From NCBI RefSeq assembly GCF_965641715.1, contig NZ_OZ282453.1: DNA of 64,000 bases. One strand, given 5' to 3'. A program made the position numbers and the translations under genes. Shown here in pieces: positions 7,102 through 41,907 of the stretch; positions within the stretch are counted from its first letter, which is position 1; every line of letters starts with the position of its first letter. Source of the DNA: Escherichia coli (GTDB lineage Bacteria; Pseudomonadota; Gammaproteobacteria; Enterobacterales; Enterobacteriaceae). Below the pieces are notes generated by a model. The model searched no databases and was not told the origin of the DNA. It saw only the letters and a program-made list of their open reading frames with translations.

Positions 7102-8115
7102 CTACCCTACTGTGGACACTGTGTGGACACTCTGAGAGCCAACACCACCACGTAGAGGATTAAGCGTTATCGCGTCCTGTAGGTACTCAGGGGCGAAGTG
7201 CGCATATGTCATTGTCTGCTCAATTCTTGAATGCCCAAGTATTCTCTGAAGCGTGATAATGTTGCCTCCGTTTATCATAAAGTGCGTGGCGAAGCTGTGC
7301 CGCAATGCGTGCGTAGCCTGACCCGGTGGTAGGTCGGGTTTCAGCTCCTTCATTAGCCGTCTGAACGCGGGATAGTTAGCATCAGTGAACAGATAGCCAC
7401 GCTTACCCGTTGTGATCATTGTTGCCAGTTCCTCGGATATAGGAACGGTTCGCGGCTTGTTGGTTTTTGTCTTAACGAAAGTGACGCGATTTTGAATGAT
7501 ATTTTCCGCTTTCAGTTTTGCTGCCTCACTCCATCTCGCGCCGGTGCTAAGGCAAAGAATCGCAATTTTTTTATTATCACCGTCCACTTTTGACAGCAGA
7601 AGCGCGATCTCCTCTTGCGTCAGGTAGCCGGTTTCTGGCTTATCCTCTTTGAGTCTTTTAAGACCTCGGAAAGGATGCTCCCCGAAAAATAGCTCCGCAT
7701 CTATCAACGCGGTAAACATCCCGCTAAGACACGTTAAATCACGATTTATACTCGATGGCTTGATGCCTTGAGAACGCCGCACAGTGCTGTATTGGCTTAT
7801 CAATGACTTAGTAATCTGAAAGGCACAAGGGTCACTGGTTATCTTTGTGAACAACTCTAACTTGCCCAGGTAATCTCGGCCGTGAGTTTCATACTTGCCT
7901 TTCAGCTCCCACCAGATTTTTGTTAGCTCTGACAGATGCCGCTTATCTGTCGGTTTCGCCAACCATTTTTTGTTGTGATGGTTGTACTGGGTATGCTTCT
8001 CGAAAGCGATAGCTTCGCTTTTCTTGTCAAATTTCCTGCGGATGCGCTTTCCGTTGCGCCCTGCAGGTCTAATGTCCACTTCATAACGACCATCATCGAG
8101 CTTTTTAACAGACAT
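7102..8115 (-). CDS. int: P2-type tyrosine integrase (337 aa)
   Basis: Near-identical to remembered P2 Int; start set at MSVKKLDDGRYEV; catalytic R..HxxR..Y region present. Confidence 0.9.
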   Translation of the reverse strand: MSVKKLDDGRYEVDIRPAGRNGKRIRRKFDKKSEAIAFEKHTQYNHHNKKWLAKPTDKRHLSELTKIWWELKGKYETHGRDYLGKLELFTKITSDPCAFQITKSLISQYSTVRRSQGIKPSSINRDLTCLSGMFTALIDAELFFGEHPFRGLKRLKEDKPETGYLTQEEIALLLSKVDGDNKKIAILCLSTGARWSEAAKLKAENIIQNRVTFVKTKTNKPRTVPISEELATMITTGKRGYLFTDANYPAFRRLMKELKPDLPPGQATHALRHSFATHFMINGGNIITLQRILGHSRIEQTMTYAHFAPEYLQDAITLNPLRGGVGSQSVHTVSTVG

Positions 8116-9904: not shown

Positions 9905-10180
9905 ATGAGTATCCGTATCGAGATAAATCATCAGTATGTAGTTACAAGCGATCGCTACCAGTTCATTTTGCAGGAAAAGAAAGTGGCGACTGCTGGAAAA
10001 AATAAAGGTAGCGAATGGCTTGATACTGTCGGGTATTACCCGACGATTCAAAAACTGATTTCTGGTCTGGTACTACATGACCTTTTAAATGGCGGTGCTG
10101 ATAGTTTTGCGGCGTTGGGTGAGCAGGTCGAGCAGTTGGGACTGCAATGTCAGACCGCGTTTTGTGCTGATGGCCGTTGA
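9905..10180 (+). CDS. Hypothetical early protein (P2 orf81/82-position)
   Basis: ORF only; position, RBS aaggagac upstream. Confidence 0.4.
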   Translation: MSIRIEINHQYVVTSDRYQFILQEKKVATAGKNKGSEWLDTVGYYPTIQKLISGLVLHDLLNGGADSFAALGEQVEQLGLQCQTAFCADGR

Positions 10181-12461
10181 GACTCGGGGGCGTATTGCCC
10201 CCTCGCTAGCCCTGCCAATATCTAAGCGCACCGGCGATACTTTCGTTGGTGCTTATCCCTGGAATGCTCCCCGCGCTGCCATTGGCCGTGACAGACCCCT
10301 TACACGTGCCGAATTCCGTCAGGTGCAAGGTGTTTTATACCGGATTGACCGCCTGCCTTTCTTTCTTAAGACGTTGTTTACTTCCCGTTATAACTTCATT
10401 CGTCGCACAAAGAGCCCGCCCGGGGCGCTCTATTTCCTGAAAAACACCTTTGAGCGGAAGCTGTTGCCGCGTCTTGAGCGCGTTAACGAGCTGTGCGGGA
10501 TGAATGAATCTGCGTCGATTGGTTTCTTGTCTGAGCGTGACGAATATGCGCGCTTGCCTGATATGAATGACAAAGAGCTGAAAAAATTTGCGGCCAGAAT
10601 TGCCGCGCAGCTCTGGCGTAAATACGAGGAACTCAGCGACGAATGGGCTGAGGCATTCGGCGGTAAAGAGACCCTTTTCACCGATGAGGCGCAGGTGCAC
10701 ATATATGGTCAGGTGGCTGGTGTTGCACGCGCGTTCAACTTAACCCCGCTCTACTGGAAAAAATACCGTAAGGGTCAGATGACGATCCGCATGGCGTTTT
10801 CCGCTATTTCCCGTCTGATAAAAGATGATTGGTGGGTTAACCAGCTCAAGGCGCAGCGTATGCGCTGGCGCGAGGCGCTGCTTATCGCTGCCGGTGAAGT
10901 CAACAAAGACCGTTCACCTTACGCCAGCAAAATGGCGATCCGCGAGGTTCACTCGCGCCGGCTGGCTAATCTCGAATACCTGAAATCCTGTGAGCTGGAA
11001 AACAAAGTTACCGGCGAACGTATCGACCTCATCAGTAAAGTCATGGGGAGTATTTCAAACCCTGAAATACGCCGTATGGAGCTGATGAACACCATTGCCG
11101 GAATTGAACGCTATGCGGCCAGCGTTGGTGATGTGGGAATGTTTATCACGCTGACCACGCCGTCGAAGTATCACCCGACCCGACAGGTCGGCAAAGGTGA
11201 CAGCAAAACGGTGCAGCTCAATCACGGCTGGAACGAAACCGCATTCACCCCTAAAAACGGCCAGCGCTATCTGTGCCGAATCTGGAGCCTGATGCGTACC
11301 GCTTTCAAAGATAACGATTTGGAAGTGTATGGGATGCGCGTTGTCGAGCCGCACCACGACGGCACGCCACACTGGCATATGATGCTTTTTTGCAAACTCA
11401 GTCAGCGTAAAGCTATCAACGAAATTATGCGTCGTTATGCCCTCAAAGAGGACGGACACGAAAAGGGCGCGGCAAAACAGCGCTTTGAGTCGCGTCACCT
11501 TAATCAGGGGGGCGCGGCGGGTTATATCGCCAAATACATTGCCAAAAATATCGACGGCTACGCGCTTGACGGTCAGCTCGATCACGATACCGGCAAATCT
11601 CTGAAAGATACGGCCGCAGCCGTAACCGCATGGGCGTCTACATGGCGTATCCCTCAGTTTAAACCGATTGGCCTCCCGACAATGGGCGCTTACCGCGAAC
11701 TGCGTAAGCTGCCGCGCGGGGTGAGTATCGCCAGCGAGTTTGACGACCGTGTCGAGGCCGTCCGGGCTGCTGCAGATGAGGGGGAATTTGACCTGTACAT
11801 CAGCGCGCAGGGTGGGGCAAACATGCCGCGTGATGCTCAGGCGGTCAGGGTCGCCCGTAAGGTGACGGATGAGGTAAACGAATACGAGGAGGATATCGAG
11901 AAAGTGGTCGGTATTTATGCCCCTCATCTTGGGGTGAGCCGCGTACATGTAACCCGTACAGCGGAATGGCGCATAGTTCCAAAGGTTTTGGCCGTTGAGC
12001 CTTTGACCTTAAAAAGCGGCTCTGCCGCGCCTCGGAGTCCTGTCAATAACTGTGGAAAGCTTGCCGACGGTGGCGATCCAGTTATGACACCTACACCGTC
12101 TGAGCAAGCCGCAGCGGTGTTAAATCTGATTGAGGCCGGGGTTATCGGCTGGAATGAGCCAGACGTCATGAAGGTTCTTAACGGCGCGTTAAAAGCTGGC
12201 GCACCTCGCAATAATCGCCAGCAAAGAAGCAATGCGCCACTCAAAACGAGCGAGCAAGCTCCATCAGCCAGGATGACAACACCAGAAAGGGATCGCGTGG
12301 CGAAAATTCGTTTCGATTTGGCTCAGGAGGGCATTACCCCAGAACGGTGGGCGCTCGAAGCGCTGGCGCGTGGGGCAACGGTGATTTATGGCGATAAAAA
12401 AATCAAATACGCGGCTGCTGATGAGTGGCCGGGATTCTCAATTCAAGAGGAGCAGAATTAA
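10170..12461 (+). CDS. P2 gpA rolling-circle replication initiation endonuclease (~763 aa)
   Basis: Extensive identity to remembered P2 A; start placed at MAVETRG rather than the upstream extension. Confidence 0.9.
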   Translation: MAVETRGRIAPSLALPISKRTGDTFVGAYPWNAPRAAIGRDRPLTRAEFRQVQGVLYRIDRLPFFLKTLFTSRYNFIRRTKSPPGALYFLKNTFERKLLPRLERVNELCGMNESASIGFLSERDEYARLPDMNDKELKKFAARIAAQLWRKYEELSDEWAEAFGGKETLFTDEAQVHIYGQVAGVARAFNLTPLYWKKYRKGQMTIRMAFSAISRLIKDDWWVNQLKAQRMRWREALLIAAGEVNKDRSPYASKMAIREVHSRRLANLEYLKSCELENKVTGERIDLISKVMGSISNPEIRRMELMNTIAGIERYAASVGDVGMFITLTTPSKYHPTRQVGKGDSKTVQLNHGWNETAFTPKNGQRYLCRIWSLMRTAFKDNDLEVYGMRVVEPHHDGTPHWHMMLFCKLSQRKAINEIMRRYALKEDGHEKGAAKQRFESRHLNQGGAAGYIAKYIAKNIDGYALDGQLDHDTGKSLKDTAAAVTAWASTWRIPQFKPIGLPTMGAYRELRKLPRGVSIASEFDDRVEAVRAAADEGEFDLYISAQGGANMPRDAQAVRVARKVTDEVNEYEEDIEKVVGIYAPHLGVSRVHVTRTAEWRIVPKVLAVEPLTLKSGSAAPRSPVNNCGKLADGGDPVMTPTPSEQAAAVLNLIEAGVIGWNEPDVMKVLNGALKAGAPRNNRQQRSNAPLKTSEQAPSARMTTPERDRVAKIRFDLAQEGITPERWALEALARGATVIYGDKKIKYAAADEWPGFSIQEEQN

Positions 12462-12925
12462 TGAGCAAAATCCATGAGTTAAAAATTGCACCTGAGTATT
12501 TTAACTCTGTGATATCTCAGGAAAAACGTGCTGAATTTCGTCTCAATGACCGCGATTATTCTAGCGGTGATATTCTCGGGTTGCATGAATGGGAACCGGT
12601 AAACAGATATACCGGGAAACGTGTATCAGTGAGGGTGACAAACGTTACGGATTTATCTGAATGGGCGGAAAATTATGTGATGCTGAGTTTTCAGTTAATG
12701 ATGCCAGATGTCCAGTGCGGTATGTCCCTAATGAACTGGAAAGAGTTAAGCGAGAAGGGGCTTGTTTTCAGAGTTAATCACGAAATTCTACACCCGTTAG
12801 GGCTGGCTATTAGATATGAAACACTTAACAGCGTTTCTGGTAGGGCTTACATCGCTGATGATGGTGTCTGGCAATATTCCGACAAGTTGGTCGCAGATGC
12901 TAAAAAAAATGGGTGGTTAAAATGA
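12461..12925 (+). CDS. DUF3850-like (ASCH/PUA-like) protein, 154 aa
   Basis: N-terminal HELKIAPEYF...EFRLNDRDY..GDIL motif; ATG overlaps gpA stop (TAATG). Confidence 0.5.
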   Translation: MSKIHELKIAPEYFNSVISQEKRAEFRLNDRDYSSGDILGLHEWEPVNRYTGKRVSVRVTNVTDLSEWAENYVMLSFQLMMPDVQCGMSLMNWKELSEKGLVFRVNHEILHPLGLAIRYETLNSVSGRAYIADDGVWQYSDKLVADAKKNGWLK

Positions 12926-13161
12926 GTCATATGCGAATGATGCCAGTGCCGCCGATACATTCAACGCAAAACATTAAGCTGATGGCCGTCGTACATCGCC
13001 TGCAACAAATTATGATTAACGAGAATCTGACCCCTGACGAACTGGTCGGGTGTGCCGGTGTCGTCCGGGATAATCACCGCAAATACAGCGATATCAGCAA
13101 TCCGAAAATTGAGGCGTTTCGGCCACCAAATATGGCAAAGCCACCACCGCGTCGACCATAG
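12913..13161 (+). CDS. Hypothetical small protein (82 aa)
   Basis: ORF only, proline-rich basic C-terminus. Confidence 0.3.
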   Translation: MVKMSHMRMMPVPPIHSTQNIKLMAVVHRLQQIMINENLTPDELVGCAGVVRDNHRKYSDISNPKIEAFRPPNMAKPPPRRP

Positions 13162-13443
13162 CAAACGCCGCCGGTGCTGAAACTTGTTTTCAGTGCCAGC
13201 GGTGTTGAGCAACGAGCCCCGCGAGACGTTAGCCTGCACCGTAGAGACCACCCCCAACCGGCACGATTAAAGTCGGTTTTATTATGCAATTTTCCCACAA
13301 TTTCCCGGTTTTTTAGCCGTGCATGCAACAGGTGCATTTTTTTGCATACGTTGGGGATGCCTGTTCTGGCCGCGCGCCGCCAGAGCAGGCGCGGATCCAG
13401 AGTGGTCATGCAACTGCATTAAAAACGACCCATAAAGCGGGCA

Positions 13444-13462
13444 GGCGAGGCGGGGTAAGCGT
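13444..13462. other. cos-like 19-mer ggcgaggcggggtaagcgt (first 12 nt match the P2 cohesive-end sequence as recalled)
   Basis: Partial match to remembered P2 cos GGCGAGGCGGGGAAAGCAC; location between A region and Q is as expected. Confidence 0.3.
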
Positions 13463-13533
13463 TGCGCGCGCCTGTCAAAGATATTAAGATTGTCTCAAAA
13501 TCGATTGATTTTATTGAACTAATGGAGCTAGGA

Positions 13534-15090
13534 ATGATTAAGGGTATAGGTCTTCAAAACTTCAGGAGCTTTGTCAACAAAACGTTTATTGATTTAAAAC
13601 CAATTACAGTATTTGTTGGTAAGAACAGCAGTGGTAAAAGTTCCCTATTGCGCACATTTCCTTTACTTCGTCAATCTGTAGAAGAAAATACTACTGGCCC
13701 AATACTATGGTATGGGAGATATGTGGATTTTGGCGATTTTACAGATGTACTTTCCCGAAACTCTGAAAAAAAAGAAATTACGTTTAGTTTTTCACTCTCA
13801 ATTCCGCCAGAGGTTTCACAAAGATATACATATTATCGTTCTACTGATTTAGCAAAGCAACCAACAGATATTGAAGCAGAGTTAACTGTTTACTCTAAAG
13901 ATAAAAAAACAAAAACGAAAACGATTAAGCTTATATTGGCTGATTTAACAATATTTATTTCAATGGATGAGAGTAGTAATGTTAAATTACTCATTGAATC
14001 AGATGATAAAACAATAGAGCGTGATGGGATAATAGCTAAAAATCTTGGGCAGTTCATACCAAATCTAATTTTGAAGGGTAAGGAAGACAGTCCTCCTCCA
14101 AGCACATCATTCTATTTGAGACATTCTAGGCATGACAGGGCGTTAGAATTGTCATTTATTGATTCAGCGGCGAAATATATAAAGAAATATTTCCATACTA
14201 AATCTGATATAAATCAAGTGACAGAGGCATTCAAAAGAATTGGCTTTATACCCAAAGCGTACGCTAGTAAATTAGTTGCTTTTCTATTTAAGGAACAAAA
14301 AGTTTTTAGTAGAAACTTTGAATTTCAACATGATGAAATAATGAATGAGTTATATCCATTTATAATTGGATGGAATATTAATAATCTTATAGATATAATA
14401 AATACATCCTTGTCAGATTCATTCAGAAATGTAAAGTACATAGCTCCACTGCGTGCTACATCAGAAAGATTTTATCGTTTTCAAGATTTACAGGTTAATG
14501 AGATAGATCATACTGGTTCCAATCTTGCAATGCTTTTGAATTCATTAAGACCGGCTGATAAATCAAAATTTGAAGATTGGACAAAGTTAAATTTTGATTT
14601 CATTATCAAGGTTGAACAAAGTGGCTCTCACTTTGCAATTTTAATAAACACCGGTGAAAATAGTGAGAACTATAATGTTAGTGATATGGGGTTTGGTTAT
14701 TCTCAGGTTTTGCCGATAGTTACAGCCATTTGGCTTGAGACAGAACGTCGTGCTACCACGGTTAGAAAACCTATAACATTTATCATTGAGCAGCCAGAAT
14801 TGCATTTACATCCGTCATATCAGCATAATTTAGCAAGTATTTTTGCAAAAGTAGTAACTAAAGCAAAAGAAAATAATGTAGATTTGAAGATAATTTTTGA
14901 GACACATAGCCAGACCATGATTGAAGCACTTGGTGAATATATTGAGGAAAATGAAAGTCTTTCACAGGATGATATTTCAATACTGGTATTTGAAAAAGAT
15001 GATAAGCAGCAGACTATAGTTAAGAAATCTTATTTTGACGAGAATGGTTTCCTAAAAAATTGGCCGGTTGGCTTTTTCTCGGGTAAGTAG
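13534..15090 (+). CDS. OLD/AAA_21-like ABC ATPase (518 aa), first gene of cargo operon
   Basis: Start MIKGIGLQNFRSF with GGAG RBS; Walker A GKNSSGKSS (13618..13644); Walker B-like FIIEQPELHLHP (14779..14814); FETHS H-loop; AT-rich. Confidence 0.8.
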   Translation: MIKGIGLQNFRSFVNKTFIDLKPITVFVGKNSSGKSSLLRTFPLLRQSVEENTTGPILWYGRYVDFGDFTDVLSRNSEKKEITFSFSLSIPPEVSQRYTYYRSTDLAKQPTDIEAELTVYSKDKKTKTKTIKLILADLTIFISMDESSNVKLLIESDDKTIERDGIIAKNLGQFIPNLILKGKEDSPPPSTSFYLRHSRHDRALELSFIDSAAKYIKKYFHTKSDINQVTEAFKRIGFIPKAYASKLVAFLFKEQKVFSRNFEFQHDEIMNELYPFIIGWNINNLIDIINTSLSDSFRNVKYIAPLRATSERFYRFQDLQVNEIDHTGSNLAMLLNSLRPADKSKFEDWTKLNFDFIIKVEQSGSHFAILINTGENSENYNVSDMGFGYSQVLPIVTAIWLETERRATTVRKPITFIIEQPELHLHPSYQHNLASIFAKVVTKAKENNVDLKIIFETHSQTMIEALGEYIEENESLSQDDISILVFEKDDKQQTIVKKSYFDENGFLKNWPVGFFSGK

Positions 15091-15092
15091 TT

Positions 15093-16205
15093 ATGTTGAT
15101 TAATATCGAAAATGCGACACCTGAGAAGGTGCTAAATAACTCATTTGCCATAGCGGTTGAAAATATACTTCGGGCATTCGCTGAACAAAAACACTTGGTT
15201 ATAGGGGCAAGGGTTTTTTTTAAAACTATTATCAATGATCAAAGCGGGCTTTATAGCCTTTCATCAAAAAGTTACGCGCAAGAGGCTTTGTCGGGTCTAA
15301 CAGAGTACTATGCTATCTTGGATCAGGTCTCATTTTATGTATCTGTCGACTTTAATATTAGTGATAAATCATTTAAATGGGTTCAGATCGGTGAATCTTT
15401 TAAATTTGTTTGTGGTCCATTGTATTTTAATGACTCGGCACAATTGCAAAAAACGAAAATAGTATGTGAAAATCCTTTGGATTCTGATTTTTTTAAGGTT
15501 ATAGCGGCTCATTATGCCGAAGGTATTAACTTATCTCGCTGCGAAATGGGTTTTATCGCTCTAAATGGCGGTGGGGGCAGTACTAAGGATATATTCGAGC
15601 GTGCAATTCAAAATAATGAGATAGTTTTTTGTATTGTGGATAATGACAAAAAACATCCTGGAGCCCCATTCGGAGGTACTTGCTCACATTTTTTGGGCTC
15701 ACAAATTACTCGCTCAGGTTTCGTGGAGATTTTAGATGTACATGAAATAGAATCTCTAGTTCCTTTATCGACAATTGAAGATGTATTAAGAAGTCAAAGT
15801 CAATTGCAACAAAAAGAAAAATCTCTCATTTTCTTTAAGCATCTTTGCTCCGTAGATGAATCAGTAAAATTTTATATTGACCATAAAAAAGGTTTTGATT
15901 TTAAAACAGCCCTTGAACTCGATCGAAAACATGGTGCATATTGGCGTCCGATATTAAAGAAGCTTGATATAAAATATGATTGTGAGTATATCGAATCAAA
16001 ACGTTGTAGCTGCAACGCTGCTTGTGTAAGTTATGATGGTTTTGGAGAGAATTTGCTCAGCAATACATTGAAATATATACAAAAGGGAAGTTTAAAAAAA
16101 TATAATCCTCACCTAACACCAGTGCTTTCTGATAAATGGTATAAGTTAGGTAAGAATTTCTTTAGTTGGAGTTGTGGTCCATATAAAAAAGCAAGGGTTG
16201 GTTAA
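15093..16205 (+). CDS. Partner protein (370 aa) with Toprim-like signature, possible nuclease effector
   Basis: ATG 2 nt after ATPase stop; YAEG (15519..15524), GGGG, IVDNDKKHP (DND at 15639..15647); C-terminal Cys cluster; AT-rich. Confidence 0.65.
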   Translation: MLINIENATPEKVLNNSFAIAVENILRAFAEQKHLVIGARVFFKTIINDQSGLYSLSSKSYAQEALSGLTEYYAILDQVSFYVSVDFNISDKSFKWVQIGESFKFVCGPLYFNDSAQLQKTKIVCENPLDSDFFKVIAAHYAEGINLSRCEMGFIALNGGGGSTKDIFERAIQNNEIVFCIVDNDKKHPGAPFGGTCSHFLGSQITRSGFVEILDVHEIESLVPLSTIEDVLRSQSQLQQKEKSLIFFKHLCSVDESVKFYIDHKKGFDFKTALELDRKHGAYWRPILKKLDIKYDCEYIESKRCSCNAACVSYDGFGENLLSNTLKYIQKGSLKKYNPHLTPVLSDKWYKLGKNFFSWSCGPYKKARVG

Positions 16206-16210
16206 ATTAT

Positions 16211-16235
16211 CACAGCCCCGATAAAGTGGGCTGTG
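16211..16235. terminator. Hairpin (cacagccc/gggctgtg) downstream of cargo operon, possible terminator
   Basis: 8-bp inverted repeat followed by T-rich stretch. Confidence 0.35.
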
Positions 16236-16300
16236 ATGTTATTATCTGTGGTTCTTGAGTTACAGGGCTGAATATAATGTTGAGATGTTTATTTTGAAAA

Positions 16301-17308
16301 TCAAAGTGAATATTTTTTAAATCTTATAACTTCCATTTCTAACCAGTTGTTTAGTTCTTTGAACCGTTCCTGTAAAGGAGTTAACTCATTTCGGACAAAC
16401 ACTTGTGCAGCTTTTACAACATCACCAAAACCGCCAACATTGTCAGGCATAATTCCCATCATTTGTGGTGGTACCCTATGAGCACTCAACAAATCTTCTG
16501 CACTAACCTTTTTGATATTGAAAAAATCATCTTTCGTGGCGACTTCACTCAACGGCACAATCTTGATGCCATCCGGTTTCCCGTTGGGCGCGTAGAAAAA
16601 CAGGTTTTTGAAATTCCCGAGTCCTTTTGAGTCGCGCATCGCGTTACGGAGAGATTCAACATCGGTGCTGCTCTGTGCCGCGTCGGTGACATACATGATG
16701 TACCCCGCATGTGCGCCATTCTGATAATACTTGCGGCGAAACAGGGTAGCGGATTCATTCAGCCAGGCGGAATTAAGCGCGCTCAGGTATTCCGGCATCC
16801 CGTACAGCTCCTGATTGATATCGGGCTCAAGCAGGTGACACACAGAACCGGGGGCGAACGGGTGCGGCTGGGTGTAGCTCGACACGTACCAGTAAACGCC
16901 ATCTTCGACACCCCGGCGGGTGTATTTGGCCGGTGAGGTTTCCAGTTTTAAGAGCTGGCCGGTGACGCTCATGCGCTTCTCAAGATAGCCGTTGGCAAAA
17001 ACCAGATAATCAAGCACAAGGCGACTGAAATCCTGACGTGACAGCAACGGGTGCGGGATATAGGTGCTCGTCAGAATGTTACGTTTCACGTAAATCGGCG
17101 AGCTGTGATGGACGGCGGCGCGCAGGCTTTTTGCCAGTCCCGAGAAATTGACCGGCGGCTCGTACCATTTCCCGTTATTGATACACTCTACGTAGTCGAG
17201 GATGTCGCGGCGATCCAGAACGGGAGAAGGCTCACCAAAGGTGAACGCCTCCATTTTTTGCGGTGCGCTGGCGGTCATTGTGGCGGGTTTCTTCTGTCGT
17301 TTTTTCAT
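16301..17308 (-). CDS. Portal protein (P2 gpQ-like)
   Basis: 335-aa ORF, position opposite terminase P, similarity to P2 Q from memory. Confidence 0.85.
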   Translation of the reverse strand: MKKRQKKPATMTASAPQKMEAFTFGEPSPVLDRRDILDYVECINNGKWYEPPVNFSGLAKSLRAAVHHSSPIYVKRNILTSTYIPHPLLSRQDFSRLVLDYLVFANGYLEKRMSVTGQLLKLETSPAKYTRRGVEDGVYWYVSSYTQPHPFAPGSVCHLLEPDINQELYGMPEYLSALNSAWLNESATLFRRKYYQNGAHAGYIMYVTDAAQSSTDVESLRNAMRDSKGLGNFKNLFFYAPNGKPDGIKIVPLSEVATKDDFFNIKKVSAEDLLSAHRVPPQMMGIMPDNVGGFGDVVKAAQVFVRNELTPLQERFKELNNWLEMEVIRFKKYSL

Positions 17309-25038: not shown

Positions 25039-25791
25039 CTAACGTTCGAATATTATTATCACCCCAAGAGTGAGATGTATATGATCTTCTATTTGTTCAT
25101 ATTCTTCTTGGGTGTAAGAAAGTTTAGCTAATTCTTCTGTTGCTGAAAAGACATCAATGGATACTTGGACGCCTGATGGGATTTCATTTTTTATTTCATT
25201 AATGTATTTGTTGTATTTTCTTGTGATTAGTATTATTGCGCGATCTCTGTCGACGGTGGTTGAGCAATATCGATTGGATTTGCTGTTGTTATTGTGGAAT
25301 GATTCGAATGCGCAATTGAGGGCAAGTCTTAGATTTGATGATCCTGTATTTCCAGTGTGATTGAAGTATTCTATGTTTCTTCTTAAGTCTTCAAATAGTT
25401 TTGCCTTATTTGGATTGTCCCCTTTAACTTCAATAGCACATTTTGGATAATCAAACCCATTATTATTGCCTAGTATGGCAATGTCTATCCTACCTTTTCT
25501 GGTTGTGTTTGCTTTGATTCTTAGTATTTGCCTTGAAAATATTTTCCCCGGCGTTAGTCTTTTTGAAAATGGCACCGTTGAAGTTATAAAATCCCCTGTA
25601 TCATATTCAAAAATTATTTTCTCATCATCTATGTGAAAATTTTTACTATCAAGTAGGGCTTTGCCTATTGATACAGTAGCGACGTATTCGGTATTGATTT
25701 TACCACCAGAACTGAAATTCATTAAACGTGTGATTTTAGCTGCATTGGACATGCCATCCTTTACTGCTGTGATTATTTCGTAATTGTCCAT
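25039..25791 (-). CDS. AT-rich cargo protein (250 aa) with PD-(D/E)xK-like nuclease motif
   Basis: Opposite strand to flanking tail genes; motif GRIDIAIL..(17 aa)..AIEVKGDN (D103, E121, K123; 25423..25485); strongly AT-rich. Confidence 0.6.
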   Translation of the reverse strand: MDNYEIITAVKDGMSNAAKITRLMNFSSGGKINTEYVATVSIGKALLDSKNFHIDDEKIIFEYDTGDFITSTVPFSKRLTPGKIFSRQILRIKANTTRKGRIDIAILGNNNGFDYPKCAIEVKGDNPNKAKLFEDLRRNIEYFNHTGNTGSSNLRLALNCAFESFHNNNSKSNRYCSTTVDRDRAIILITRKYNKYINEIKNEIPSGVQVSIDVFSATEELAKLSYTQEEYEQIEDHIHLTLGVIIIFER

Positions 25792-30229: not shown

Positions 30230-30807
30230 TGACTTTCAAAATGACCGGGAAAAGCCGGACAATCACTGTTTATAACTATCGCGCAGATACCTGTGAATTT
30301 ATTGGAAAAGGTGACGCCCTGATCCCACCATTTACCGGACTCCCTGCCTGTTGTACCAGTGAAAAACCGCCAGAAACCAGCGCGGGATGTATTCCCGTTT
30401 ACGACACTGAAAGCGGACGATGGAACATCACTGAAGACCACAGGGGTGAGGTTGTCTATGACACTGAAACAGGTCATCAGATGGAGATAACCGAACCGGG
30501 TAAATATCCGACAGGGACAACAACCGCTGCACCTGAAAACCCGTGGCAAAAATGGAATGGTAAAGCATGGATTGATGATGCTGATGCAGAACGGAATGCA
30601 TTGACTGAGTCTGCGAAAAACAACAAAAGCATGCTTCTTAAGCAGGCCAATACTGCGGTTGCGACATTACAGGACGCTGTTGATCTGGAGATGGCAACCG
30701 AAGATGAAAAAGCACAGCTCGCGGCATGGAGGAAATACCGTGTTTTACTGAGCCGCATCCAGCCAGAGAATGCCCCGGATATTGAATGGCCGCCGCTGCC
30801 AGTCTGA
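30229..30807 (+). CDS. Tail fibre assembly chaperone (G-like)
   Basis: 192 aa, translationally coupled to H. Confidence 0.75.
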   Translation: MTFKMTGKSRTITVYNYRADTCEFIGKGDALIPPFTGLPACCTSEKPPETSAGCIPVYDTESGRWNITEDHRGEVVYDTETGHQMEITEPGKYPTGTTTAAPENPWQKWNGKAWIDDADAERNALTESAKNNKSMLLKQANTAVATLQDAVDLEMATEDEKAQLAAWRKYRVLLSRIQPENAPDIEWPPLPV

Positions 30808-30941
30808 TCCGACATCCGGCGGGCAGTTGCCCGCCTTTTCCTTTCCCGTCGTTGTGCCAGACCTTAGCCAACCCTGACAAATAGCCCCTCATCACCACAC
30901 AACAGAAAATACACTCACCCCTTAACCACGGAGTTAAACGG

Positions 30942-32135
30942 ATGAGTGACTATCATCACGGCGTCGAGGTCATCGAGATTAACGATGGCGTGCGCACCAT
31001 TTCCACCGTTTCAACCGCCATTATCGGCATGGTCTGTACGGCCAGCGATGCTGACGAGAAAACATTTCCCCTCAATGAGCCGGTACTCATTACGAACGTG
31101 CAGAGTGCTATCGGTAAGGCTGGCAAAAAGGGCACGCTGTCGACGTCCCTGCAGGCTATCGCTGACCAGTGCAAACCTGTCATCGTGGCCGTGCGTGTGG
31201 CCGAAGGTATTGAAGATCCGGAGAACCCCGAAGCGGCGCACAAACAGACCATTTCCAATATCATCGGCACCACCGATGAAAACGGCAAATATACCGGGCT
31301 GAAAGCCCTGCTGACGGCGAAAACCGTCACCGGCGTTAAGCCACGGATTCTCGGCGTGCCGGGGCTGGATTCGCAGGAAGTGGCGACCGCGCTCGCGTCC
31401 ACCTGTCAGAGCCTGCGCGCCTTTGGCTATATCAGCGCGTGGGGCTGTAAAACCATTTCCGATGCCATCGACTACCGCGAGAATTTCAGCCAGCGTGAGC
31501 TGATGGTCATCTTCCCTGATTTTCTGGCATGGGACACCACGGCGAACGCGACCGCGACAACCTGGGCGACGGCGCGCGCACTCGGCCTGCGTGCCAAAAT
31601 CGACCAGACGGTCGGCTGGCATAAAACCCTGTCTAACGTTGGCGTTAACGGTGTGACCGGCGTCAGTGCCTCAGTATCGTGGGATTTGCAGGAACCGGCG
31701 ACCGACGCCAACCTGCTGAATCAGGCTGGTGTCACTACGCTTATCCGCAATGATGGTTTCAAATTTTGGGGAAACCGTACCTGCTCAGATGATCCGCTTT
31801 TCCTGTTTGAAAACTACACCCGCACCGCGCAGGTGCTGGCCGACACGATGGCGGAGGCGCACGCGTGGGCGATGGATAAACCCATTACCCCGACCCTCAT
31901 TCGCGATATCGTTTCCGGTATCAATGCCAAATTCCGCGAGCTGAAAACCAACGGTTATATCGTTGACGGCTTCTGCTGGTACGACCCGGAGTCGAACGAC
32001 ACCGCGACCCTGAAAGTGGGGAAACTGTATATCGATTACGACTACACCCCCGTCCCGCCGCTGGAAAATCTGACCCTGCGCCAGCGCATCACCGATACCT
32101 ATCTGGCGAACCTGTCAGACTCGGTCAACAGCTAA
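30942..32135 (+). CDS. Tail sheath protein FI-like
   Basis: 397 aa as P2 FI. Confidence 0.9.
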   Translation: MSDYHHGVEVIEINDGVRTISTVSTAIIGMVCTASDADEKTFPLNEPVLITNVQSAIGKAGKKGTLSTSLQAIADQCKPVIVAVRVAEGIEDPENPEAAHKQTISNIIGTTDENGKYTGLKALLTAKTVTGVKPRILGVPGLDSQEVATALASTCQSLRAFGYISAWGCKTISDAIDYRENFSQRELMVIFPDFLAWDTTANATATTWATARALGLRAKIDQTVGWHKTLSNVGVNGVTGVSASVSWDLQEPATDANLLNQAGVTTLIRNDGFKFWGNRTCSDDPLFLFENYTRTAQVLADTMAEAHAWAMDKPITPTLIRDIVSGINAKFRELKTNGYIVDGFCWYDPESNDTATLKVGKLYIDYDYTPVPPLENLTLRQRITDTYLANLSDSVNS

Positions 32136-37866: not shown

Positions 37867-38718
37867 TTGAACAATATCCCCATATCTACTCAATGGACTT
37901 TAGACGCTACGGGTGAAGTTGGACGCTCATCAGTAAATTCTGTTTATATGATTATATGTCCTGCGACAGGCTCGAAAGGATCTGGTTTTTTAATAGATAA
38001 TGGGTTAATAGTAACGAACGAGCATGTTATCACTGGATGCTCTACAAATCAGATTTTCGCAATTTCAGCTTATGGACAGAAGATTCCAATTTCTCAAAAA
38101 TGGATAGATTCTGATCGCGATTTAGCTGTGCTGAGACCTGCCATTACCCAGACTGGTGGGCTAAGTATTGTTAAGGATAATGATCTTAAAGTTGGTGAAT
38201 CAGTAACAACTTGGGGATACCCATTAGGATACAACGGTCCTGCACCGTTACTATCCGTTGGTTATCTAGCAGGATTTAACTCATACCAAACCGCCAAGGG
38301 ACAAAAAAAACATCTAGTGGTAAATGGGGCATTTAACTCAGGAAATTCTGGTGGAGCTCTTTTAAAAGCTTCAGATAATAAAGTAATAGGTATTGTAGTG
38401 AGTAAGCATGCTCCTATCAGTCAATACCATCAATCAGCTATTGAAGCTTTGTCTGAAAATATGAGTGGCGTCACCTATACCGCTACTAATGACGCTGGAG
38501 AAACTAAAAGTTTTGTAGAATCTCAAATTGTAGCAGAATTATTGATTCATATGAGAAGTCTAACTCAAGTTATGATTGGAGAAGCAATTGCAGCAGAGGA
38601 ATTACTTTCGATGCTTAGCGAAATTGACTTGAGTCCACCACAATCTATGTCAAGAAATGCCTTATGTCATTGCGGGAGTGGAAAACGCTTCAAAGAATGT
38701 CATGGAAAGATATCCTAG
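37867..38718 (+). CDS. AT-rich cargo: trypsin-like (S1/chymotrypsin fold) serine protease with C-terminal SEC-C zinc-binding motif
   Basis: TTG start with strong aaaggag RBS 7 nt upstream; catalytic-triad-like TNEHV / DLAVL / GNSGGAL; C-terminal CHCGSGKRFKECHG (38662..38703). Confidence 0.65.
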   Translation: MNNIPISTQWTLDATGEVGRSSVNSVYMIICPATGSKGSGFLIDNGLIVTNEHVITGCSTNQIFAISAYGQKIPISQKWIDSDRDLAVLRPAITQTGGLSIVKDNDLKVGESVTTWGYPLGYNGPAPLLSVGYLAGFNSYQTAKGQKKHLVVNGAFNSGNSGGALLKASDNKVIGIVVSKHAPISQYHQSAIEALSENMSGVTYTATNDAGETKSFVESQIVAELLIHMRSLTQVMIGEAIAAEELLSMLSEIDLSPPQSMSRNALCHCGSGKRFKECHGKIS

Positions 38719-40889: not shown

Positions 40890-41141
40890 TTATTTCCTTA
40901 TCCCTGCTTTCACCTTCCGTAAAAACGCGTCCTTTTCCCACGGCTGAGCTTCACCACTACTCAACCCTTCTGCAAGCATGTCACGTAACGCTTGCAGGCG
41001 AGACTCTGCTTGCTTTTCTCGAAGTAAGCGCAGTGACTCACGGATCACTTCGCTTTGGGTGCGATAGTCGCCGGATTCAATTAAGGACTCGATAAATTCA
41101 CGCAACTCATCGCCGAGATCAACCGTCATCGTTCTGGCCAT
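40890..41141 (-). CDS. ParD-like (RHH/CopG-type) antitoxin (83 aa)
   Basis: N-terminal ribbon-helix-helix-like MARTMTVDLGDELREFIESLIESGDYRTQSEVIRESLRLLRE; upstream of toxin with 1-nt gap. Confidence 0.7.
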   Translation of the reverse strand: MARTMTVDLGDELREFIESLIESGDYRTQSEVIRESLRLLREKQAESRLQALRDMLAEGLSSGEAQPWEKDAFLRKVKAGIRK

Positions 41142-41384
41142 GTTTATGCTCTCCTGTAAGTAAAAATCTTACATCAGTGTATGTCATAAACCGGATAGCG
41201 TCACGAAAAGTATTAGAAGATATTTTGGCAGATGAACATGTTCAGGAGGATAAGCATGGAGATGTTAAACAAAGAAAGCACAATGAGTATTCATCAGTGT
41301 CCACTATTTTAATGGCGCAGGTAAATAAATAAGCGTTATTTGGAAATAAAGCCGGACGCCAACAATCCACGCCCGGCATCGTAA

Positions 41385-41717
41385 TTACGTATTGTCTTTC
41401 ACCGTCTGGCTTGTGCCATTGGCTTTAACGGAGGCAATTCCGGTTTCACGAGATTGCGCGGTGGCATACATCTGGCTGGAGCCGATAATTTGATGATTGG
41501 CGGCTTTCAGATTGAAATAGAATTTGCCGTTGCTTGCCGTTTTTTTCTCATAGCGTTCTTCTTGCGGGCTGTTGCTACGCACCGACGCGATGCCCTTTTC
41601 CGCAGAGGCTTTTGAAGTATACAGCTCGCTGGTGAGGATAGTCTCACCATTGCCCGCTTTTAGCACAAACCGGAACTGATTATCACTGCTCTTAGTGAGT
41701 TCAAACCAACCAGCCAT
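41385..41717 (-). CDS. yegP: YegP (UPF0339/DUF1508 tandem-repeat protein, 110 aa)
   Basis: Start at MAGWFELTKSS; two DUF1508-like repeats; synteny. Confidence 0.75.
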   Translation of the reverse strand: MAGWFELTKSSDNQFRFVLKAGNGETILTSELYTSKASAEKGIASVRSNSPQEERYEKKTASNGKFYFNLKAANHQIIGSSQMYATAQSRETGIASVKANGTSQTVKDNT

Positions 41718-41907
41718 AATGACTCCTTGATTGAAATTGCGTATCGAAAACAGCATCTAAAGGTGCTGTTTACCGATTAAAGTATGAGCGATTTTCTGGT
41801 GCCTGCTAGGGCGGAGAGATAATGTCAGTTTGCTGACCATGCGTGGGATAATGTTGCCGGATCGGGTCTGAACGCCATCTCCGGCTAACAAAGTCATGTC
41901 GCTAAAA

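Follow-up and report, generated by a model that had tools for sequence, protein, structure and literature searches.

We analysed a window of 64,000 nucleotides (nt) from the Escherichia coli contig NZ_OZ282453.1 (assembly GCF_965641715.1) and describe in it a cassette of two genes, here called gene A and gene B, that is carried as cargo by a P2/186-like prophage inserted between yegR and yegQ. The cassette is best described as the coupling of an NsnB-type ATPase with an OLD-like Toprim effector that is widespread, lacks annotation and arranges its domains in a novel way, and it is very probably an anti-phage defence system of the PARIS/Menshen kind. In the explanation that we favour, and that we consider reasonably likely when the module, the roles of its parts and their mechanism are taken jointly, the two genes together make up an anti-phage module of two components. 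By analogy with characterised pairs, the gene A protein would most likely be an oligomeric sensor and regulator; the gene B protein, as modelled, would probably be a metal-dependent Toprim nuclease effector of the OLD/AriB structural type, with an N-terminal adaptor and a Cys-rich C-terminus.

The two co-directional open reading frames (ORFs) occupy a stretch in which the guanine-cytosine (GC) content is 0.29-0.37 (13600-16400), as against 0.52-0.60 in the flanking phage genes. Gene A (13534-15090, plus strand; WP_000589623.1) encodes 518 amino acids (aa), and gene B (15093-16205, plus strand; WP_000906719.1, annotated as 'hypothetical protein') encodes 370 aa, with a gap of 2 nt between the stop codon TAG of gene A at 15088-15090 and the ATG of gene B at 15093. 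A TTG-started ORF spans 13462-15090; the ATG at 13534, which has AGGA 4 nt upstream and is the RefSeq start, gives the product of 518 aa. On the lengths of the two products, the 2-nt gap and the drop in GC content, as on the sequence motifs discussed below and the site between replication gene A and portal gene Q of the prophage, our results agree with an initial annotation of the stretch made from its letters alone.

The gene A protein matches the Pfam family AAA_15 over residues 1-463 (1e-26, 94.9 bits) and also AAA_21, and it ends in an alpha-helical tail (residues 477-515; 14962-15078, plus strand) that matches DUF3696 (1.1e-6). Its ABC-type motifs, all encoded on the plus strand, are intact: the Walker A motif or P-loop is GKNSSGKSS (residues 29-37; 13618-13644), the Walker B motif and D-loop read IIEQPELHLHP (residues 417-427; 14782-14814), and the H-loop is FETHS (residues 455-459; 14896-14910). 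An alignment of six orthologues, with 31-81% identity to the gene A protein, leaves invariant the P-loop residues G29, N31, G34, K35 and S36, the Q-loop residue Q47, a signature-like D384-G-F-G-x-S-Q391 (the SDMGFGYSQ motif), E419-Q-P-E-L-H-L-H-P427 of Walker B and E456-T-H-S459 of the H-loop, as well as G505, L507, W510, P511, G513 and F514 in the DUF3696 tail. Among the PADLOC models, Menshen NsnB ranks first (3.7e-55, 186 bits), followed by PDC-M55A (6.9e-46, with a best stretch that covers only residues 273-516), HEC-03B (1.4e-37) and an AriA model of AAA_15 length (3.1e-31, 107 bits), and the ATPases of five orthologues from distant loci place the four models in the same order. Because the catalytic elements are invariant and NsnB is the top model, the gene A protein is, as far as its sequence tells, an active-looking ABC ATPase of an NsnB-like clade. 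The initial annotation had called it an OLD-like ABC ATPase, which holds, with the refinement that its nearest relative is Menshen NsnB and not AriA, OLD or the Septu protein PtuA; its similarity to P2 Old is confined to the ABC motifs (E 1e-5). In the study that described Menshen, NsnB is an ABC ATPase with a DUF3696 helical tail, and two such tails are predicted to clamp the N-terminal domain of the effector NsnC (PMC12065111). By analogy, the tail of the gene A protein is probably a docking surface for the gene B protein.

The gene B protein belongs to a large family that sequence databases leave without a name. Neither it nor any of 65 diverse homologues has a Pfam match even at E <= 10, so that the Pfam search which the initial annotation had proposed as a check returned AAA_15 and AAA_21 for gene A and neither DUF4435 nor any other family for gene B. 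NCBIfam and PHROGs contain nothing that matches it, and comparison with PDB sequences, as a single sequence and as a profile, gave nothing meaningful; matches to NDUFA10 in the PDB (E ~0.05) were dismissed as noise. The sole PADLOC match is to PDC-M55B (2e-4, 19 bits, residues 123-281), and the relatives of gene B likewise match this model only, over the Toprim core, at values from 1e-4 down to 6e-9. Close relatives number 31, mostly from Enterobacterales, and a profile search of 1.84 billion cluster representatives extends the family to at least 1,866 clusters at 50% identity (E <= 1e-3), 364 of them at 1e-30 or better. The family occurs in Proteobacteria, Cyanobacteria, Deinococcota, Campylobacterota and Firmicutes. 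The best 150 representatives are 189-396 aa long, most of them full length (340-396 aa), with no ATPase-Toprim fusion among them. In AFDB50, the best 50 of 170 significant matches are all named 'Uncharacterized protein' and come from Gammaproteobacteria, Cyanobacteria, Deinococcota, Aliarcobacter, Brevibacillus and others. Table S10 of the DefensePredictor study links the cluster of gene B to YbjD (ATPase_TOPRIM_COG3593) with 95.4% HH probability over 32% of its length.

The AlphaFold2 model of the gene B protein (pLDDT, for predicted local distance difference test, 89.3; pTM, for predicted template modelling score, 0.88) has three parts. Residues 1-118 (15093-15446, plus strand) form a Rossmann-like alpha/beta domain, which reaches a pLDDT of 96.9 when modelled alone. 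Residues ~120-235 (15450-15797, plus strand) are modelled as a Toprim core in which E126 (15468-15470, plus strand) stands straight after the strand 122-125, followed by D130, a GGG turn at 159-161, D183 at the end of the strand 178-183 with D185 next to it (D183/D185, the DxD motif; 15639-15647, plus strand), and the acidic residues E218 and E220. In the canonical Toprim signature, strand 1 is followed by a Glu and strand 3 by DxD, and the gene B protein carries both. Across the 65 homologues, which share 19-71% identity with it, M1, E126, G161, D183, D185, E220 and W349 are invariant, and D130, G159, G160, C180, P189, T196, E218 and P224 are conserved in at least 90%; this pattern points to strong purifying selection on the sequence. 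The model thus has an OLD-family Toprim core, its best structural match being the nuclease region of the class 2 protein BpOLD, with GajA also among the structural neighbours, and the Toprim-like partner anticipated by the initial annotation is borne out by a confident model with an invariant Glu and DxD. The third part, residues 236-370 (15798-16202, plus strand), is mostly helical. It contains the conserved D263-x-K265-x-G267 and W284, which together with C299, C305 and W359 are conserved in at least 90% of the homologues, and four cysteines (C299, C305, C311 and C361) with a low-confidence loop at 296-310; these cysteines may bind a metal.

The pairing of the two genes is strict. In all eight independent contexts examined, across phyla, an ATPase of the gene A family (516-538 aa) lies directly upstream of gene B. 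These contexts are the P2-like prophage of the window, where the pair lies between cos and Q; a P4-like satellite of Pectobacterium, where it lies between Ogr/Delta and the integrase, at an established P4 defence hotspot, with products 81% (gene A) and 71% (gene B) identical to ours; a Thiothrix locus in which A is split by a transposase, with BrnT/BrnA alongside; a locus of the cyanobacterium Geitlerinema, where the pair is a few genes from BrxL; two integrase-linked islands, again a mobile-element context; and two metagenome contigs with adjacent pairs, in one of which the upstream gene, 52% identical to gene A, is truncated at the edge of the contig. Among 5,426 complete E. coli genomes, 38 (0.7%) carry the cassette, each as one intact copy, at 97.9% identity or more and always on the chromosome; a blastn search in 'distant' mode for divergent E. 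coli copies returned the same 38 genomes only. Since the cassette is intact in these genomes and the pair is conserved across phyla, it is not a chance pair of ORFs.

Two of the related loci carry altered copies. At the Thiothrix unzii locus (CP072793, 5338-8001 of the locus), an inserted HTH/DDE transposase pair splits the A-family ATPase into pieces of 313 aa and 199 aa and leaves B intact, so that the locus amounts to a naturally occurring ATPase knockout in which the nuclease gene survives. In E. coli UTAK-6 (NZ_CP157151, 5560-6582 of the locus), B is annotated with 340 aa and the DNA match, at 97.9% identity, is 1 nt shorter, which suggests that a frameshift has cost it the last ~30 residues, C361 among them.

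This distribution bears on whether the cassette serves defence at all. It might instead be selfish, as an addiction module or something like a toxin-antitoxin pair, or it might serve the prophage in an accessory role such as DNA processing near cos, for it directly adjoins cos, has no known phenotype, and belongs to a superfamily whose ABC ATPases also act in DNA repair, with weak RecF/SMC_N matches in the gene A protein itself. Those matches are confined to the P-loop region (residues 1-40), however, and the phage does not need the cassette, because no sequenced phage in INPHARED, P2-like or other, carries it (the matches there are of only ~150-170 bp of cos-proximal flank) and so few E. coli genomes have it. 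The same pair also occurs in contexts other than P2, namely the P4-like satellite, the integrase islands and the cyanobacterial locus near BrxL, and DefensePredictor scores gene B strongly as a defence gene. We therefore regard a role outside defence as very improbable.

The prophage has its integrase at 7102-8115 (minus strand), replication gene A at 10170-12461 and portal gene Q at 16301-17308 (minus strand), with late genes that extend to about 38 kb of the window. Alignment to P2 across cosR/cosL locates the 19-nt cos cohesive end, GGCGAGGCGGGGTAAGCGT, at 13444-13462, with GGCGAGGCGGGGAAAGCAC as its counterpart in P2, and the end of the phage 186 record corresponds to window position 13443. 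Position 13444, at which the initial annotation had let the feature start, is the first base of the cohesive end, so that the cassette is enclosed by cos and Q and belongs to the left end of the packaged genome. Homology with the left end of P2 runs only to 13469, and the cargo starts directly afterwards, 7 nt past cos; in P2, cosL and the Q terminator are separated by non-coding DNA of about 140 bp. One of two things would follow: sequence on the left of cos can be replaced nearly to the nick site, or the packaging signals are on the other side. The cos-proximal loci of P2 and P4 are defence hotspots established by experiment (PMC9122126), and Rousset et al. treat the entire gpA-gpQ interval, cos included, as a single hotspot. 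The initial annotation was hence right to place the cassette in a P2 defence hotspot, but the tin and old genes that it named as the P2 occupants of the site are annotated in P2 on the opposite side of cos, between orf91 and cosR.

At the other end of the cassette, a hairpin, AUCACAGCCCC...GGGCUGUGAU, is followed by a U-rich stretch (16208-16238, plus strand). It folds with -20.8 kcal/mol (z = -3.8; 0 of 200 shuffles equally stable) and is probably a terminator between the convergent genes B and Q; its weak T-run kept it from being called in a consensus terminator scan. A scan of 12900-16400 against Rfam gave nothing above noise, so that no additional RNA component was found.

By analogy with PARIS, P2 Old, the NsnB-NsnC pair of Menshen and WonAB, we propose the following mechanism. 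In the uninfected lysogen, the gene A protein would hold the gene B protein in an inactive complex, the contact probably being made by the N-terminal domain of the gene B protein docked on the DUF3696 tails of a gene A protein dimer. A cue from an infecting phage, sensed by the gene A protein in an ATP-dependent manner, would release or activate the gene B protein, which would then cleave nucleic acid, most likely host tRNA; tRNA cleavage would stop translation and abort the infection, with the outcome that the lysogen population, and the P2-like prophage with it, would be protected. Several systems provide precedents. PARIS forms an AriA6:AriB3 propeller complex from which a trigger induces the release of AriB, followed by cleavage of tRNA-Lys (PMC11464382), the Menshen complex is predicted to be NsnB4-NsnC2 (PMC12065111), and for WonAB the prediction is that the C-terminal extensions of WonA dimerise and WonB docks on them. 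We favour RNA, and tRNA in particular, as the target because AriB cleaves tRNA-Lys, P2 Old is a reported tRNase, and WonB stops translation; AriB and P2 Old are OLD-type Toprim nucleases that arrest translation as tRNases, and when WonB is overproduced, translation stops and genomic DNA stays intact.

A protein with the architecture of gene B could also attack DNA directly, in the way of GajA and the class 2 OLD proteins, and degrade the DNA of the incoming phage. The best structural match, the nuclease region of BpOLD, comes from a DNA exo/endonuclease, and the four-Cys cluster at the C-terminus could be a nucleic-acid-binding zinc module. On the other hand, the two-component or prophage-borne relatives with known targets, AriB and P2 Old, cleave tRNA, WonB appears to be RNA-targeting, and nothing in the sequence of gene B discriminates an RNA from a DNA substrate. 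We consider DNA the main alternative to RNA but the less plausible target, and its direct degradation rather unlikely.

Several observations weigh against the proposal of a two-component module with a tRNA-cleaving effector. A consensus scan found no sigma-70-like promoter on the plus strand of 13300-13534 (its overall counts equal the shuffled expectation), and as there is no promoter consensus between cos and the start of gene A, expression in the lysogen is putative. In profile-profile comparisons, the gene B family was not significantly similar to any of two AriB sequences, the AriB family alignment, P2 Old or the partner protein of DS-16. The comparison with the AriB (DUF4435) family alignment gave an hhalign E of 0.018 and a probability of 2.6%, and since no profile similarity to AriB or P2 Old is significant, the link to these nucleases rests on fold and motifs. 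GajA and BpOLD, the structural neighbours of gene B, cleave DNA, which makes tRNA a guess as to the target. HEC-01, another pair of an ABC ATPase and a Toprim protein, gave no protection when tested, and the literature searched holds no experiment on the A-B pair or a close homologue.

The pair has already entered the record, in supplementary tables. Table S5 of Rousset 2022 lists the A-B gene arrangement, with neither accession in its table of systems evaluated for defence. In Table S10 of DefensePredictor (Science 2026), the label 'predicted novel defense gene' is given to an E. coli protein of 370 aa from the cluster of WP_000906719.1, and the cluster has a mean defence log-odds of 12.75; the accession is absent from the study's tables of tested systems. 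In the main text of the papers searched, neither RefSeq accession is named. The suggestion of an undescribed or divergent system in the initial annotation is accordingly upheld in that we found no full-length match of high identity to a characterised system, and has to be qualified in that both the arrangement and gene B had been catalogued before.

Pairs of ABC ATPases and nucleases are emerging among the largest classes of bacterial immune systems, and how the ATPase senses infection and controls the nuclease is understood for few of them (PARIS, Gabija, Septu and P2 Old). The cassette joins two branches of this class, a Menshen-type DUF3696 ATPase and an OLD/AriB-type Toprim effector, without the DNA-sensing NsnA. 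If the pair works alone, then the NsnB-type ATPase itself must sense, which bears on how Menshen signals. As the gene B family is large and Pfam, NCBIfam and PHROGs all lack it, a single validation would annotate thousands of 'hypothetical proteins' and add a system that the current rules of DefenseFinder and PADLOC probably miss. As a native system of an E. coli prophage, the cassette is amenable to cloning and to standard panels of coliphages within days.

The prophage carries further cargo. An AT-rich ORF of 250 aa (25039-25791, minus strand; GC ~0.35) is clearly homologous to Tin of P2 (PADLOC Tin 5.6e-93), flanked by a gpS-like gene and baseplate gene V and not beside cos as in P2. We take this site to be the place of P2 orf30. 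The prophage hence has tin but not old, and has tin at a different cargo site than P2; in NZ_AP021944, an otherwise near-identical prophage has a different gene there, encoding a 328-aa hypothetical protein. The third AT-rich gene of the cargo (37867-38718, plus strand), which follows an ogr-like regulator at the prophage's right end, encodes a trypsin-like peptidase of 283 aa that matches the protease domain of RT-Protease class XI (7e-21) and PDC-M35A (6e-13), and more weakly LmuA and HamA; it may be another orphan or partial defence effector. Between replication gene A and cos (12461-13161) there are a DUF3850/ASCH-type gene of 154 aa, whose PHROG match is annotated 'RNA-binding protein', and an ORF of 76 aa. 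Because the DUF3850 gene is orf91 in P2 and many of the hotspot arrangements in Rousset Table S5 begin with it, it looks like prophage backbone rather than part of the A-B system. In the NZ_AP021944 locus, where the corresponding window coordinates are ~546 bp lower, a RelE/ParE-ParD toxin-antitoxin pair (41138-41732) lies just outside the prophage, between yegQ and yegP, and the gap between the tail-fibre assembly and tail sheath genes (30773-31487) measures about 135 bp and has no gene. This gap is presumably the second classical cargo locus of P2 (Z/fun), which appears to be empty in the prophage. No tRNA genes were found in the prophage.

Among the known systems, the OLD nucleases (P2 Old, GajA and the effectors of the retrons Eco8 and Eco2) have the two domains fused in one polypeptide. 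The cassette is not an OLD protein, because it encodes its ATPase and its Toprim domain in two genes, which a stop codon and 2 nt keep apart. It resembles WonAB, HEC-01/02/03, PD-T4-4 and AbiL, which are likewise borne by prophages or islands and combine an ABC ATPase sensor with a separately encoded nuclease. These differ in the effector, which is of the PD-(D/E)xK type in WonB and PD-T4-4, a NERD protein in HEC-02 and a PIN protein in HEC-03; gene B also matches neither the Toprim partner of HEC-01 nor the hidden Markov models (HMMs) of AbiLii, and gene A matches AbiLi only at 6.2e-13, far below its NsnB score, which places the cassette outside AbiL.

PARIS invites a closer comparison, since the cassette could be a very divergent member of it. 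Anti-restriction proteins such as Ocr are what the AriA hexamer of PARIS detects, and it responds by setting free a dimer of AriB, which cleaves tRNA-Lys. For the detection of PARIS, Rousset 2022 asks for an ATPase with AAA_15 >= 32 or AAA_21 >= 27 next to a DUF4435 (PF14491) protein with >= 27, and gene A, with 94.9 bits for AAA_15, exceeds the first of these cut-offs. The gene order, ATPase and then Toprim protein, is the same, as are the P2/P4 hotspots. The three acidic motifs of gene B (E..D, DxD and ExE/EN) are ordered as in AriB, and the hhalign alignment with AriB-1 is in the correct Toprim register and sets E126 opposite the catalytic FEG glutamate of AriB, although at a non-significant probability of 2.6-6.8%. 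Yet gene B is not a DUF4435 protein by any HMM or profile test, the same being true of its 65 homologues in the Pfam search, and it has no PADLOC AriB match. Beyond the ABC motifs, gene A is unrelated to AriA: BLASTP against AriA from the O42-type locus of E. coli finds no significant similarity (E 0.86), the NsnB model outscores the AriA model, and gene A has a DUF3696 tail. In addition, the gene B protein is about 65 aa longer than AriB, owing to an extra N-terminal domain of ~118 residues that AriB lacks, which accounts for the remark in the initial annotation that the partner was larger than expected. Because the DUF4435 criterion fails and gene A is not AriA-like, the cassette would work like PARIS but is not a member of it, and we think a divergent PARIS an improbable account of the data.

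The comparison with Menshen divides along the two genes. Gene A, as an ABC ATPase with a DUF3696 tail, has what characterises NsnB, and the gene B protein has an N-terminal alpha/beta domain followed by a predicted nuclease, a layout that its first two domains may share with some NsnC effectors, in which an N-terminal alpha/beta (inactive PIN) domain precedes a Toprim-fold nuclease. The cassette might therefore be a Menshen system from which NsnA is lost or in which it is encoded elsewhere; its NsnB-NsnC pair would then depend on a ParB-DUF262 protein supplied in trans, or do nothing in the absence of one. The NsnA-B-C triad defines Menshen, however, NsnA being a ParB-DUF262 + ParBDB protein, and no DUF262/ParB gene adjoins the pair in the window or appears among the genes called, with their Pfam families, at the related loci, so that all eight contexts lack one; the pair alone moves between mobile elements. 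The proteins differ from their Menshen counterparts as well: gene A has 518 aa as against about 345 positions in the NsnB model and hence large inserts, and gene B has no match to the NsnC HMM, has an N-terminal domain for which similarity to PIN is not demonstrable, and carries in addition a Cys-rich region at its C-terminus. With DS-16, discussed below, as an example of an NsnB-like ATPase for which one partner is enough for defence, a Menshen system short of its NsnA strikes us as an unlikely description of the cassette.

The nearest catalogued entity is PDC-M55, a PADLOC candidate whose first component is a good match for gene A and whose second is a weak match for gene B. It is one of 145 untested 'guilt-by-embedding' candidates, has no experimental support, and is discussed in no paper that we found in the literature searched. 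A further comparison is with DS-16 ('PLIK'), which was validated in E. coli in the DefensePredictor study. It too consists of two genes, with an ATPase that is annotated DUF3696 and matches Menshen NsnB, and has no NsnA; the N-terminal 91 residues of its ATPase are 33% identical to the gene A protein (E 3e-13). It differs in the size of the ATPase, 656 aa, and in its 341-aa partner, which is unrelated to gene B (hhalign E 0.34). DS-16 shows that two-gene systems built on an NsnB-like DUF3696 ATPase without NsnA can defend. We propose, as a tentative view that we hold with slightly more doubt than conviction, that the gene B family and its dedicated NsnB-like DUF3696 ATPase may suffice by themselves as an immune system of two genes, different from PARIS and from Menshen alike, with a trigger of its own, a new adaptor domain that would connect nuclease and ATPase tail, and a Cys4 site that may take part in the choice of substrate.

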